Of a DNA stretch of 64,000 bases, positions 44,898-51,221 are shown in pieces. The stretch comes from Escherichia coli (lineage in GTDB: Bacteria > Pseudomonadota > Gammaproteobacteria > Enterobacterales > Enterobacteriaceae), in the NCBI RefSeq assembly GCF_003334765.1, contig NZ_QOWT01000003.1; one strand, written 5' to 3'. Numbering within the stretch: position 1 is the first letter of the stretch; each line of letters begins with the position of its first letter. The notes beneath the pieces are model-generated. The model did not search any database. It was not told the DNA's origin and was given only the letters and a program-made list of their open reading frames with translations. Position numbers and translations under genes: made by a program.

Positions 44898-45794
44898 ATG
44901 GACATTTTTATTTCGAAAAAGATGCGCAATTTCATTTTATTAGCGCAAACCAATAATATTGCCCGGGCGGCAGAAAAAATCCATATGACGGCTTCGCCAT
45001 TTGGTAAAAGCATTGCCGCGCTGGAAGAACAAATTGGCTATACGCTATTTACCCGCAAAGATAATAATATCAGCCTCAATAAAGCCGGACAGGAACTGTA
45101 TCAAAAACTGTTCCCGGTTTATCAACGGCTTTCTGCGATTGATAATGAAATCCATAACTCAGGACGTCGTTCACGAGAAATTGTGATTGGCATAGATAAT
45201 ACTTATCCGACAATTATTTTCGATCAGTTGATTAGTCTCGGAGATAAGTATGAAGGCGTGACCGCCCAGCCAGTTGAGTTCAGCGAAAACGGCGTTATCG
45301 ATAATCTTTTTGACCGCCAGTTAGATTTTATTATCTCCCCACAGCATGTATCTGCACGAGTTCAGGAACTGGAAAACCTGACTATCAGTGAACTACCACC
45401 GCTGCGATTAGGCTTTCTCGTTTCTCGCCGTTATGAAGAGCGTCAAGAGCAAGAGCTGCTTCAGGAGCTGCCCTGGCTACAAATGCGCTTTCAGAACCGG
45501 GCCAACTTCGAAGCAATGATTGATGCGAATATGCGACCTTGTGGGATCAATCCAACCATTATTTATCGTCCCTACAGTTTTATGGCCAAAATCAGCGCCG
45601 TGGAGCGCGGACATTTTCTGACGGTGATCCCGCATTTTGCCTGGCGACTGGTGAATCCGGCAACGCTGAAATATTTTGATGCACCGCACAGGCCGATGTA
45701 TATGCAGGAATATCTTTATTCAATCAGAAATCATCGTTATACCGCCACGATGCTTCAGCATATTGCTGAAGATCGTGACGGGACGAGTCATTAA
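44898..45794 (+). CDS. ygfI: LysR-family transcriptional regulator YgfI (298 aa)
   Basis: N-terminal HTH (NFILLAQTNNIARAAEKIHMTASPFGKSIAALEEQIG); convergent 4-nt overlap with scpC. Confidence 0.85.
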   Translation: MDIFISKKMRNFILLAQTNNIARAAEKIHMTASPFGKSIAALEEQIGYTLFTRKDNNISLNKAGQELYQKLFPVYQRLSAIDNEIHNSGRRSREIVIGIDNTYPTIIFDQLISLGDKYEGVTAQPVEFSENGVIDNLFDRQLDFIISPQHVSARVQELENLTISELPPLRLGFLVSRRYEERQEQELLQELPWLQMRFQNRANFEAMIDANMRPCGINPTIIYRPYSFMAKISAVERGHFLTVIPHFAWRLVNPATLKYFDAPHRPMYMQEYLYSIRNHRYTATMLQHIAEDRDGTSH

Positions 45795-47269
45795 CCCAGC
45801 ATCGAGCCGGTTGCAATTAAATTACGGTGTAAGTCGAAGACGTGGCTAAGATCGTGGTGAATATGTCCGCCAGGCGCATTTTCCAGATAGCGATGCAGAT
45901 AATCCCGATACATAGGATGTGCACAATTATCAATGATAGTGCGGGCGCGTTGAAGCGGGGAAAGACCGCGCAGATCGGCGATCCCTTGTTCGGTGATGAT
46001 CACTTTGACGCTGTGTTCGCTGTGATCAACATGGCTGCACATTGGCACGACGGTTGAGATCTTGCCTTCTTTAGCAATCGACGGGGCCATAAAGATCGAC
46101 AGATACGCGTTGCGTTCAAAATCACCGCTGCCGCCGATGCCGTTCATCAGATCGACCCCGGCTACGTGTGTTGAGTTGGCATGCCCGTAAATATCAAACT
46201 CCAGGCCGACGTTCAGAGCGATGACGCCCAGACGACGGATGATTTCCGGGTTATTGGAAATCTCCTGCGGACGCAACACAATGCGGCTGGCAAAGTAATC
46301 CATATTGTCGTAAATCTTGCGCAGGGAATCGGCCGAGATTGTCAGGCTGGAGGCGCTGGCCCCGCTGATTTTGCCGGTTTCCAGTAAATGCACCACCGAT
46401 TCCTGTAGCACTTCCGAATACATCATAAACGGAGGAATTACCGGGTTTTCCCCCAGACGCGCCATTACCGCATTATTGATATTGCCCACGCCACTTTGCA
46501 GCGGCAGAAATTCCGGCGGAATACGCCCATGCGCCATTTCCTGCAATAAGAACGTGACCACGTTATCGGCAATCTGCTGGCACATGGGATTTTGCTTATC
46601 CAGCATATTACCGGCGTCGGGCAAGTTGGTTTCCACGACGGCGACAATCTTTTTCGGATCGATTTGCACATAGCGGGTACCGACGCGATCCATTGCATGG
46701 AAGATCGACACGCTATTGCGCCGCGGTGGCGCGCCAGGAATCACAATATCCGCCAGTTCTGCAACGCGCGGATCGTGATAGTGATTGAGTTCAATGATCA
46801 CTTTCTTCGCCCGCAGCAGCCAGGTCGGCGCATTACCGATCCCGCTGGTTAACCAGACTCGACCATCCGGTGCCAGTGCCGATGCTTCAATGACGGCAAC
46901 ATCAATGTCGCCGAAGAAACCGTAATTGACCATTTGCGCCACTTCGCTCAAATGCAGGTCAACGAAACTCACCGCGCCCTGATTGATCTTTTTACGTAAA
47001 CCGGACGATGTTTGATATGGCGCACGCCAGGAAACAGCATCGGCGTCAGAAAGTACATCGTCAGCGGCGGCGCTGATTGACGCACCCGTCAGAAGGCGAA
47101 TTTGATACGGCTTTTTGGCCTCATGCTGTTCGTTAGCTCTGCGGGCAATCGCGGTGGGTAGGGCTTTCGGCGAACCCGCCGGGGTAAAGCCGCTAAATGC
47201 CACCATGTCGTTATGCTGGATAATTTCTGCCGCTTCATTGGCGGTCATCCTTGTCCACTGAGTTTCCAT
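45791..47269 (-). CDS. scpC: propionyl-CoA:succinate CoA transferase (492 aa)
   Basis: METQWTRMTANEAAEIIQHNDMVAFSGFTPAGSPK... recognised. Confidence 0.93.
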   Translation of the reverse strand: METQWTRMTANEAAEIIQHNDMVAFSGFTPAGSPKALPTAIARRANEQHEAKKPYQIRLLTGASISAAADDVLSDADAVSWRAPYQTSSGLRKKINQGAVSFVDLHLSEVAQMVNYGFFGDIDVAVIEASALAPDGRVWLTSGIGNAPTWLLRAKKVIIELNHYHDPRVAELADIVIPGAPPRRNSVSIFHAMDRVGTRYVQIDPKKIVAVVETNLPDAGNMLDKQNPMCQQIADNVVTFLLQEMAHGRIPPEFLPLQSGVGNINNAVMARLGENPVIPPFMMYSEVLQESVVHLLETGKISGASASSLTISADSLRKIYDNMDYFASRIVLRPQEISNNPEIIRRLGVIALNVGLEFDIYGHANSTHVAGVDLMNGIGGSGDFERNAYLSIFMAPSIAKEGKISTVVPMCSHVDHSEHSVKVIITEQGIADLRGLSPLQRARTIIDNCAHPMYRDYLHRYLENAPGGHIHHDLSHVFDLHRNLIATGSMLG

Positions 47270-49084: not shown

Positions 49085-51221
49085 GATGCTGGCTTATCAG
49101 ATTCAGTACGTCGCGCACACTGTCGAGCATAGGTGTACCTGGACCATAAATCGCCGCCACGCCGCGCTCTTGCAGGAAGGCGTAATCCTGCGGCGGAATG
49201 ACGCCACCCGCGACCACGCAGATATCTTCGCGTCCCCATTTTTTCAGCGCTTCGACCAGTTCCGGGATCAGCGTTTTATGACCGGCAGCCAGTGAGGATG
49301 CGCCCACTACGTGAACGTCGTTTTCTACGGCTAGGCGGGCGATCTCTTCAGGTGTAGAGAACATCGGGCTTAAATCTACGTCGAAACCGAGATCGGAATA
49401 GGCGCTGGCGATCACTTTCGCGCCGCGATCGTGTCCATCCTGGCCCATCTTAGCGATCAGAATGCGCGGGCGACGACCATTGTCGGCAAGGAACTGCTCC
49501 GTTTGCGCAACAATGGCATCGAACTCGGAGGCCGATTTCTCAGACTGATGATAGCTTTGCGCAATCACGCCGGTAACACACTGGCTTGGCACCAGATAAC
49601 GGTCGAAAGCGACTTCCAGCGCATCGGAAATTTCACCCAGGGTGGCGCGAACGCGAGCGGCATTAACAGCGGCAGCCAGCAGGTTTTCGTTATGCTGTGC
49701 GGCGTGAGTCAGGGCGTTCAACGCGGCGGTTACGGCGGCATCATCACGGGTGGCGCGAATGCGTTCCAGCGAAGCAATTTGCTCGTTACGCACCATCACG
49801 TTGTCGATCTCAAGTACATCGGTTTCGTCTTCGTGATCCAGTTTGTACTTGTTGACACCAACGATGACACGCTTGCCCTGGTCGATCAGCGACTGTTCGC
49901 GCGCTGAGGCCTCTTCGATCATTCGTTTTGGCAGACCTGCTTCGATCGCTTTCGCCATGCCACCGGCTTCGTCGATCTGTTGGATAATAGCTCTGGCTTG
50001 TTTGACGATTTGATCGGTCAGCGACTCAATGTAATAGGATCCGGCCAGTGGATCGACGGTGCGGCAGAGTTCTGATTCTTCCTGGATGATGATCTGGGTG
50101 TTGCGGGCAATGCGTGCTGAGAAATCGGTAGGCAAACCAAGCGCTTCGTCAAAGGCGTTGGTATGCAGTGACTGAGTACCGCCCAGCGTCGCAGCCAGCG
50201 CTTCAATGGTGGTGCGGATAACGTTGTTATACGGATCCTGTTCAGTCAGGCTCCAGCCTGAGGTCTGGCAGTGGGTACGCAGCGCCAGTGATTTCGGGTC
50301 CTGTGCGCCAAATCCACTGACCGCTTCGCTCCATAAATAACGTGCCGCACGCAACATGGCGACGTTCATAAACAGATCCATGCCGATGCCGAAGAAGAAC
50401 GACAGGCGAGGAGCGAAGTCATCAATTTTCAGTCCGGCAGAGATTGCTGCTTTGATGTACTCAATCCCATCAGCGAGCGTAAATGCTACCTGCTGCACGC
50501 AGTTGGCACCCGCTTCACCCATGTGGTAACCGCTGATACTGATGGTATTAAATCGCGGCATGTTGCCGGAACACCAGGCGATGATGTCGGCGATAATGCG
50601 CATTGACGGTTTTGGTGGGTAAATATAGGTGTTGCGGCAGAGGTACTCTTTGAGAATATCGTTTTGAATGGTGCCGGTCAGTTTATCAGGTGTAACACCT
50701 TGCTCTTCTGCGGCGACGATATAAAACGCCAGTACTGGTAGCACTGCGCCATTCATGGTCATCGAAACCGACATTTTATCCAGCGGGATCTGGTCGAACA
50801 GGACTTTCATATCTTCCACGGTGTCGATAGCGACGCCCGCTTTGCCGACGTCGCCCGCCACGCGCGGGTTATCGGAGTCGTAGCCACGGTGGGTGGCAAG
50901 GTCAAACGCAACGGAAAGACCTTTTTGCCCGGCGGCCAGGTTACGGCGATAAAAAGCGTTGGACTCTTTTGCTGTTGAAAAACCAGCATACTGACGGATG
51001 GTCCACGGTTGGGCGGTATACATAGTGGCACGCGGGCCACGAACGTAGGGCGGCAAACCAGGAAGGGTACCTGTCACCTCCAGATTATCGAGATCGGCTT
51101 CGGTATACAGCGGCTTGATGGCGATCCCTTCCGCGGTTTGATGAACCAGCGAGTCGACAGTTTTCTCCCGACGGCTCAATTCCTTGTTGGCAAGCTGTTG
51201 CCACTCCTGCACGTTAGACAT
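49077..51221 (-). CDS. scpA: methylmalonyl-CoA mutase (714 aa)
   Basis: [48 protein letters not shown]...; B12-binding C-terminus. Confidence 0.95.

Follow-up and report, generated by a model that had tools for sequence, protein, structure and literature searches.

Known methylmalonyl-CoA systems

The closest described system is the sbm operon of E. coli K-12 (scpA-argK-scpB-scpC, b2917-b2920), which metabolic engineers already exploit for the production of propionate, 1-propanol and 3-hydroxyvalerate-containing polymers. It shares with the Wood-Werkman pathway of Propionibacterium (MutAB, epimerase, transcarboxylase, CoA-transferase) a B12-dependent mutase and a CoA-transferase on the way from succinate to propionate, but unlike Propionibacterium, E. 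coli has a single-subunit (homodimeric) mutase and uses a crotonase-fold decarboxylase instead of a biotin transcarboxylase. Another difference is that E. coli is without an epimerase gene (see also PMC5512728). The human pair MMUT-MMAA comprises homologues of ScpA (E 2e-278) and MeaB (E 1e-77) with the same motifs, but differs in its opposite physiological direction (propionate catabolism) and in its unlinked genes. ScpC belongs to the same family as AarC, the succinyl-CoA:acetate CoA-transferase of Acetobacter aceti (PDB 4eu3), and both the catalytic Glu (AarC 294, ScpC 286) and GxGGxxD are conserved, whereas the reported substrate pairs are propionyl-CoA/succinate for ScpC and succinyl-CoA/acetate for AarC.

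An intact K-12 allele of the sbm/scp operon

The window analyzed here is a stretch of 64,000 nucleotides of E. coli (assembly GCF_003334765.1, contig NZ_QOWT01000003.1). We consider it very likely that positions 45791-51221 (minus strand) are the known sbm/scp operon, intact and in its K-12 allele. This is the well-studied "sleeping beauty" methylmalonyl-CoA operon and its identification is already known. Four co-oriented genes, scpA-meaB(argK)-scpB-scpC, have argP and srsR (ygfI) on either side and are annotated in RefSeq as scpA, meaB, scpB and scpC:

49077-51221, minus strand: scpA (sbm), adenosylcobalamin-dependent methylmalonyl-CoA mutase, 714 aa (NF006944, PDB matches, motif)
49077-49084, minus strand: scpA/meaB overlap of 8 nt, ATGATTAA (sequence read directly, annotation)
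48089-49084, minus strand: meaB (argK/ygfD), G3E-family GTPase chaperone of the mutase, 331 aa (NF006958, PDB 2p67, motifs)
47293-48078, minus strand: scpB (ygfG), biotin-independent crotonase-fold methylmalonyl-CoA decarboxylase, 261 aa (NF008506, PDB matches)
45791-47269, minus strand: scpC (ygfH), propionyl-CoA:succinate CoA-transferase, 492 aa (TIGR03458, 2nvv, motif)

Compared with K-12, the DNA, genes, order, junctions and the neighbors argP and srsR are the same and the operon shows no difference; positions 45500-51500 are 100% identical to MG1655 and many other strains. The idea that the whole window equals MG1655 was rejected, as it is K-12-like in the right half only (positions 1-31411 are ~97-98% identical to K-12 with indels, positions 32663-64000 are 99.5% identical). 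All four ORFs run from an ATG to a TAA without an internal stop; frameshifts and premature stops, singled out by the original prediction as the evidence that would speak against it, were looked for in all four and none was found. The predicted 8-nt argK/scpA overlap was read directly from the sequence, with the meaB start codon placed inside the final codons and stop codon of scpA, which suggests that their translation is coupled. The remaining junctions are a 10-nt gap between meaB and scpB (ribosome-binding site AGGA) and a 23-nt gap between scpB and scpC (GAAGGAG). Gene order and spacing of the four scp genes are invariant in 46 other species, where all four ORFs are intact and ScpB identity is 77-100%.

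All four proteins exceed the curated NCBIfam cut-offs, i.e., ScpA against the NF006944 equivalog (1252 bits, cut-off 876), MeaB against NF006958 (494 bits, cut-off 329), ScpB against NF008506 (487 bits, cut-off 257) and ScpC against TIGR03458 (753 bits, cut-off 659). Residues 6-707 of ScpA match human MMUT (2xij/8gju, E 2e-278) and the protein also matches P. shermanii MutB (1req, E 5e-270), both at E<1e-268, while MeaB (residues 1-331; 2p67, E 1e-219) and ScpB (residues 1-261; 1ef8 and 6n92) match solved E. coli structures over their full length and ScpC matches 2nvv (E 6e-165). Annotation, NCBIfam scores and structure matches thus agree on the gene identities and the order scpA-argK-scpB-scpC that had been predicted. 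The catalytic motifs, also claimed to be intact, were all found in their respective proteins: in ScpA the B12-binding DGHDRG (aa 595-600, nt 49422-49439), which has the base-off/His-on form DxHxxG; in MeaB the Walker A GTPGAGKS (aa 61-68, nt 48881-48904) and NKDD (aa 200-203, nt 48476-48487); in ScpB H66, G110 and Y140, which we take to be the oxyanion hole and carboxylate binder of the 1ef8 structure; and in ScpC Glu286 (46412-46414), aligned to residue 294 of AarC, and GIGGSGD (aa 377-383, nt 46121-46141). The substrate specificity of ScpC is not readable from its sequence, because an NCBIfam ScpC-type succinyl-CoA:acetate equivalog is also above its cut-off. Mutase activity with a cobamide cofactor has been reported for exactly this ScpA protein (PMC6759758; PMC5512728). 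By itself, the finding changes nothing and amounts to a renewed identification of a textbook cryptic operon, here as the K-12 form; its modest value lies in three qualifiers, i.e., completeness, population distribution and regulation.

Completeness and direction of the pathway

Based on in vitro biochemistry by others, carried over to this operon by sequence identity, the proposed cycle would begin with ScpC moving CoA from propionyl-CoA onto succinate, giving succinyl-CoA and propionate. ScpA with adenosyl-cobamide, guarded by the GTPase MeaB, would then convert succinyl-CoA to (R)-methylmalonyl-CoA, which ScpB would decarboxylate to propionyl-CoA, so that the net cycle would turn succinate into propionate and CO2. 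A complete succinate-to-propionate pathway, as the original prediction had it, is the original proposal of Haller 2000 as cited by later papers. Mutase, decarboxylase and transferase are indeed encoded, but completeness is disputed (PMC5512728) and no epimerase was found in the operon. In glucose minimal medium, Gonzalez-Garcia 2017 obtained no propionate unless a methylmalonyl-CoA epimerase was added and concluded that the native operon, without this enzyme, is an incomplete pathway; whether ScpB acts on the (2R) epimer made by ScpA is disputed (PMC5512728). This epimerase requirement counts against our preferred explanation, as the hand-off from ScpA to ScpB as drawn above may fail. An epimerase gene was found neither in the operon nor in the conserved neighborhood of the 46 other species, and the flanks of nine context-diverse loci, compared by their ORFs and without a profile HMM scan, share no extra gene, epimerase candidate included. 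Such a lack in operon and flanks is compatible with either the complete or the incomplete reading.

Given this dispute, it is possible, though we rate it as doubtful, that the operon is intact yet alone unable to convert succinate to propionate, and that its natural job is to process methylmalonyl-CoA and propionyl-CoA from amino-acid or odd-chain catabolism rather than to run a closed succinate cycle. The need for a Propionibacterium epimerase to obtain propionate from glucose in minimal medium speaks for this, as do the doubling of propionate from amino acids and the use of isoleucine that the operon enabled (PMC5512728) and the missing epimerase-like gene in the operon and the flanks of 46 species. 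However, a coupled ScpA and ScpB assay gave propionyl-CoA from succinyl-CoA (Haller et al., as related in PMC5512728), 1-propanol was made from glucose with sbm-ygfD-ygfG and B12 (Srirangan 2013, PMC3850637), and the conservation of the four-gene set by purifying selection in different genera, in no case together with an epimerase, is more easily explained if the set is self-sufficient. That the operon instead assimilates propionate, turning it into succinate as in the animal/Propionibacterium methylmalonyl pathway, we regard as scarcely credible, even though roles in assimilating uncommon carbon sources have been suspected (Srirangan 2013, PMC3850637). The reactions of the ScpA and ScpC families are established to be reversible, but the module has the decarboxylase ScpB and neither propionyl-CoA carboxylase nor transcarboxylase, and decarboxylation is, by established knowledge, effectively irreversible. 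Furthermore, propionate use in E. coli proceeds by the methylcitrate cycle, which also counts against this direction. Any description of the proposed succinate-to-propionate cycle as complete should mention the dispute over the epimerase and the need for external cobamide.

Expression and the upstream region

To our knowledge, E. coli has no de novo cobamide synthesis and this, together with weak transcription, is why the operon is silent in standard laboratory culture. Poor expression in the laboratory, correctly anticipated by the original prediction, was described by Srirangan 2013 as an inactive or weak promoter, with ScpA remaining an apo-enzyme unless cobalamin is added (PMC3850637). The four genes are probably transcribed together, starting from the argP-scpA spacer, and scpA and meaB are probably coupled in translation. 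The features of this spacer are:

51222-51424, minus strand: argP-scpA intergenic region, with the scpA ribosome-binding site GGAG at 51228-51231
51289-51330, minus strand: conserved non-coding composite upstream of scpA, GGCAAAAAA (51322-51330)-N17-TTTTTTGCTGGCGACA (51289-51304)
51350-51365, minus strand: degenerate CRP-like site cTTGA-N6-TCACA (alignment and regex count; speculative)

No sigma-70 consensus promoter was found in the spacer at the scan threshold, and promoter-like matches over the whole region were fewer than in shuffles. The promoter is thus not located, which counts against our preferred explanation. The 16-mer TTTTTTGCTGGCGACA is present upstream of scpA, with at most two mismatches, in 42 of 47 species, and in 35 of those 42 GGCAAAAAA lies exactly 17 nt from it, other genomic contexts included; every E. 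coli genome has the composite once. By eye, neither -35/-10 nor sigma-54 boxes gave a convincing fit to this conserved block. We regard the composite as a candidate operator or promoter element. Two RNA-level possibilities were rejected: a cobalamin riboswitch (or any Rfam family), with 0 Rfam matches at E<=1 across 44500-52700, and an RNA structure behind the upstream element, with an MFE of -12.1 kcal/mol and z = 0 against shuffles. At the CRP-like position, sister species carry TTTGA-N6-TCACA; by regex count the site is present with at most one mismatch in ~28 species and absent from E. coli proper. The extra mismatch of the E. coli half-site relative to its sister species may add to the silence of the operon.

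Loss among E. coli and purifying selection

Full conservation of the operon, which had been predicted as expected, holds for ~79% of complete E. coli genomes, but most of the operon is missing in the other 1151 of 5426 (21%). Nearly all of these operon-poor genomes (1114 of 1151, the uropathogen CFT073 included) share one common 4.26-kb deletion junction, and the breakpoints obtained by blastn on the window delimit what they lack:

45945-50202: interval missing in the deletion allele and present here

The operon is a lineage-variable trait: one deletion, probably ancestral, explains why about a fifth of complete genomes lack it, and the distribution of the operon is relevant when metabolic models of gut E. 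coli are built for individual strains. The remnant decays further through small deletions, and strain MB51 has undergone an independent IS1-linked loss of the operon. In the literature searched we found nothing that connects scp loss with phylogroup B2, although such a connection may have been published elsewhere. The operon is dispensable in nature, 21% of complete genomes having lost it, and this counts against our preferred explanation.

Could the operon be an evolutionary relic heading for loss, intact here because too little time has elapsed? Its poor laboratory expression (PMC3850637), the disappearance from 1151 of 5426 genomes without obvious cost, with a remnant that is still decaying, and the independent event in MB51 would all fit, but we judge this highly improbable. 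When the operon genes are compared with those of four diverged strains, dN/dS is 0.02-0.06 at dS 0.05-0.12 and ScpB has zero non-synonymous changes; the ScpB protein (WP_000122080.1) is identical in six strains despite 5-14 synonymous site differences. Where it is retained, the operon is under strong purifying selection. The intact ORFs of the 46 other species and the conserved non-coding elements upstream likewise speak against a relic, as does a mutase tuned to the cobamide of its own species, i.e., the best-bound cobamide is the one that E. coli produces from cobinamide (PMC6759758). Most likely, the operon is a conditionally used module and no decaying relic, since purifying selection acts in the retaining lineages and the upstream non-coding elements are conserved there.

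The neighboring regulator srsR

Downstream of the operon lies a regulator gene that is convergent with scpC and overlaps its 3' end by 4 nt:

44898-45794, plus strand: srsR (ygfI), LysR-family regulator (NF047842, 635 bits, cut-off 425)

Together with the conserved upstream element, the synteny of srsR would point to a regulated module of five genes and away from a dead promoter. Tentatively, we propose that the scp genes and srsR form a conserved five-gene module in which SrsR or another factor might control scpA via GGCAAAAAA-N17-TTTTTTGCTGGCGACA, and that the operon sleeps in the laboratory for want of inducer and cobamide. The SrsR box TCAGATTTTGC has no match within one mismatch near the operon, which by this measure falls outside the SrsR regulon; window-wide, its counts are no better than chance. 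Scp was also missing among the 10 targets of SrsR in gSELEX, and the reverse half TCGTTTTTTGC resembles the SrsR box weakly, at 8 of 11 positions. We found no ygfI-sbm link in the literature searched, although one may have been published elsewhere. Strong purifying selection, the conserved elements upstream and a LysR regulator inherited along with the operon offer a concrete and cheap experimental route to the signal that wakes it.

Coupled loss of srsR and scp was rejected, given that srsR is intact in CFT073, which carries the deletion. O157:H7 NE1127 and strain 47258, both operon-positive, have srsR as a pseudogene. In other Enterobacterales, convergent srsR (ygfI) follows scpC in all sufficiently long loci (46/46), and 17 of the 46 srsR-bearing loci are without argP/yggE flanks, i.e., lie in a different genomic context.

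Gene layout and protein identities

The scp (sbm) operon consists of four consecutive open reading frames on the minus strand (window 45791-51221), towards which a LysR-family gene converges:

49077-51221, minus, scpA (sbm), 714 aa with the ATG start of the annotation; its reading frame stays open back to a TTG at 51242
48089-49084, minus, meaB (argK/ygfD), 331 aa
47293-48078, minus, scpB (ygfG), 261 aa; the open frame reaches back to a GTG at 48120
45791-47269, minus, scpC (ygfH), 492 aa
44898-45794, plus, srsR (ygfI), LysR-family regulator gene, convergent to scpC

All four scp frames start with ATG and end with TAA, and translation of the four revealed no internal stops (frameshifts or premature stops being what would speak against intactness), so the operon is intact, at exactly the coordinates originally predicted. 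Read directly from the sequence, scpA and meaB overlap by 8 nt (ATGATTAA), again precisely as predicted, meaB and scpB are separated by 10 nt with the ribosome-binding site AGGA, and scpB and scpC by 23 nt containing GAAGGAG.

Proteins were assigned by the curated NCBIfam cut-off of their own family, which all four passed, i.e., ScpA (NF006944, 1252 bits, cut-off 876 bits), MeaB (NF006958, 494 bits, cut-off 329 bits), ScpB (NF008506, 487 bits, cut-off 257 bits), and ScpC (TIGR03458, 753 bits, cut-off 659 bits). Full-length matches were found to solved E. coli structures for MeaB (2p67) and ScpB (1ef8/6n92), while human MMUT and the P. shermanii mutase match ScpA (E < 1e-268) and the 2nvv and AarC structures match ScpC. 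The expected motifs are in place: DGHDRG at aa 595-600 of ScpA, GTPGAGKS and NKDD in MeaB, residues H66, G110, and Y140 in ScpB, and GIGGSGD in ScpC, whose Glu286 aligns with AarC residue 294, a position known as that of the catalytic glutamate.

Positions 45500-51500 match E. coli K-12 MG1655, and many other strains besides, with 100% identity, and RefSeq labels in the identical records read scpA, meaB, scpB, and scpC, with argP upstream and the convergent srsR downstream. The object is the K-12 form of an operon already described, sbm/scp, and is ordinary. Likeness to K-12 does not extend over the entire window, which is a mosaic: positions 32663-64000 are K-12-like (99.5% identity) and the left half (1-32662) shows ca. 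97-98% identity with indels. Two reading frames are absent from K-12, a 243-aa one between speA and speB (26548-27279, plus) with a lipoprotein-like N-terminus and no NCBIfam match, and a 314-aa one after tkt (31456-32400, minus) with weak HflC/HflK (SPFH/band-7) matches, all below cut-offs. Between argP and rpiA, a 76-aa fragment of a LysR substrate-binding domain (52460-52690, plus), annotated as a CDS in RefSeq, looks like a gene remnant.

Is the pathway complete?

The ScpC, ScpA, and ScpB steps have been shown in vitro by others, and owing to their sequence identity with the characterised K-12 proteins, those of the window most likely work in the same way. ScpC would take CoA off propionyl-CoA and hand it to succinate, the resulting succinyl-CoA would be converted to (R)-methylmalonyl-CoA by ScpA with adenosyl-cobamide and the GTPase chaperone MeaB, and ScpB would decarboxylate methylmalonyl-CoA to propionyl-CoA, the net of this cycle being succinate to propionate and CO2.

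However, for Gonzalez-Garcia et al., propionate formation from glucose (in minimal medium) required an added Propionibacterium epimerase, and they concluded that what the native operon encodes is an incomplete pathway (PMC5512728). Against this stand Haller's assay coupling ScpA with ScpB, recounted in the same paper (PMC5512728), and the production of 1-propanol from glucose with sbm-ygfD-ygfG by Srirangan et al. (PMC3850637). The mutase is also an apo-enzyme unless cyanocobalamin is supplied (Srirangan et al. 2013, PMC3850637), and the cobamide it binds best, Ado[2-MeAde]Cba, is the one E. coli itself makes from cobinamide (Sokolovskaya et al. 2019, PMC6759758). The original prediction of a complete succinate-to-propionate pathway thus named the right genes, but completeness is disputed and an external cobamide is needed.

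A ScpB-seeded scan of one genome per species recovered 48 loci (ScpB identity 77-100%) in Escherichia, Citrobacter, Salmonella enterica subsp. arizonae and diarizonae, the Klebsiella oxytoca group, Kosakonia, Yokenella, environmental Yersinia, Sodalis, Acerihabitans, and others. Of these loci, 46 are long enough to judge gene order, and in every one scpA-meaB-scpB-scpC have the same order and spacing with no inserted gene. Nine loci from diverse contexts have no further gene in common in their flanks, suggesting that no epimerase travels with the operon. MeaB is the fastest-evolving of the four proteins across the loci (in Yersinia and Sodalis 59-67% identity, ScpA 81-87%, ScpB 77-87%). Three Enterobacterales-like loci come from records titled "Bacillota bacterium" MAG (L036), "Martelella alba" (L051), and "Aeromonas sp. 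RU39B" (L056), likely reflecting contamination, mis-binning, or mislabelling, with transfer a possibility.

Expression and the scpA upstream region

The predicted poor expression agrees with Srirangan et al. 2013, who describe the genes as scarcely expressed, perhaps because the promoter is inactive or weak (PMC3850637). A promoter scan detected no sigma-70 consensus site in the argP-scpA spacer (203 nt), and around the operon neither a riboswitch nor any other Rfam family was found. The scpA-proximal half of this spacer is conserved across genera but the argP-proximal half is not. The 16-mer TTTTTTGCTGGCGACA (51289-51304, minus) occurs with at most two mismatches in 42 of 47 species, and in 35 species the distance to GGCAAAAAA, which lies upstream, is exactly 17 nt. 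This non-coding composite, GGCAAAAAA-N17-TTTTTTGCTGGCGACA (51289-51330, minus), occurs just once in each E. coli genome and has no unusual RNA folding. Farther upstream (51350-51365, minus), a CRP-like TTTGA-N6-TCACA is found in ca. 28 species; in E. coli proper it is degenerate, with one more mismatch. A layout of this kind favours a promoter under regulation over a dead one, with the composite as a candidate control element.

Selection and loss within E. coli

In six diverged E. coli strains the four frames are intact save one meaB ending nine codons early. The four most diverged gave dN/dS of 0.02-0.06 at dS 0.05-0.12 (pairwise values that share the reference branch and are not independent), and ScpB shows no amino-acid changes against 5-14 synonymous differences. 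With its frames intact, dN/dS this low, and ScpB unchanged, we reject a decaying relic for the lineages keeping the operon.

Not all do. Our query matched in all 5426 complete E. coli genomes, but with coverage of at least 80% in only 4275, and the remaining 1151 keep ca. 28% or less. In the typical deletion allele (L002 2921-3847, L003, L011 46802-47857), ca. 930 nt from the start of scpA run directly into the final ca. 150 nt of scpC; window 45945-50202 (4.26 kb) is lacking, and the remnant has further small deletions. A 301-nt probe across the junction, where ca. 15 nt of microhomology are present, detected it in 1114 of the 5426 genomes, and this shared junction indicates one ancestral event. 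CFT073, the phylogroup B2 archetype, carries this allele, and strain MB51 lost the operon independently (IS1-associated). Full conservation had been called expected; the operon is intact here, but 21% of complete genomes have lost it, and the original interpretation, right in outline, overstated both completeness and conservation.

srsR and the operon

A convergent srsR homologue follows scpC in 46/46 loci (L014-L061, ca. 11280-12180), usually keeping the 4-nt tail-to-tail overlap. As the 17 of these loci missing the argP and yggE flanks still carry it, srsR travels with the operon. The paper naming SrsR gives ten gSELEX targets and says nothing of the scp genes (PMC9181523), no SrsR box TCAGATTTTGC lies near the operon, and in a later study, fucAO showed no SrsR effect (PMC11011485). 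Through an internal stop or a truncation, srsR is also a pseudogene in several lineages whether scp is intact or not, i.e., L010 (O157:H7 NE1127), L006 (strain 47258), L002, L003, L040 (E. albertii), and L049 (Y. proxima). That SrsR may regulate scp is therefore a hypothesis drawn purely from synteny. Upstream of srsR (ca. 44810-44840, plus), an alignment across genera revealed a block, TTTTTCTGTgA..CTGTAAAA..GAC, conserved in Escherichia, Citrobacter, Salmonella, Klebsiella, Yokenella, and Superficieibacter, which may act as srsR promoter or autoregulatory site.
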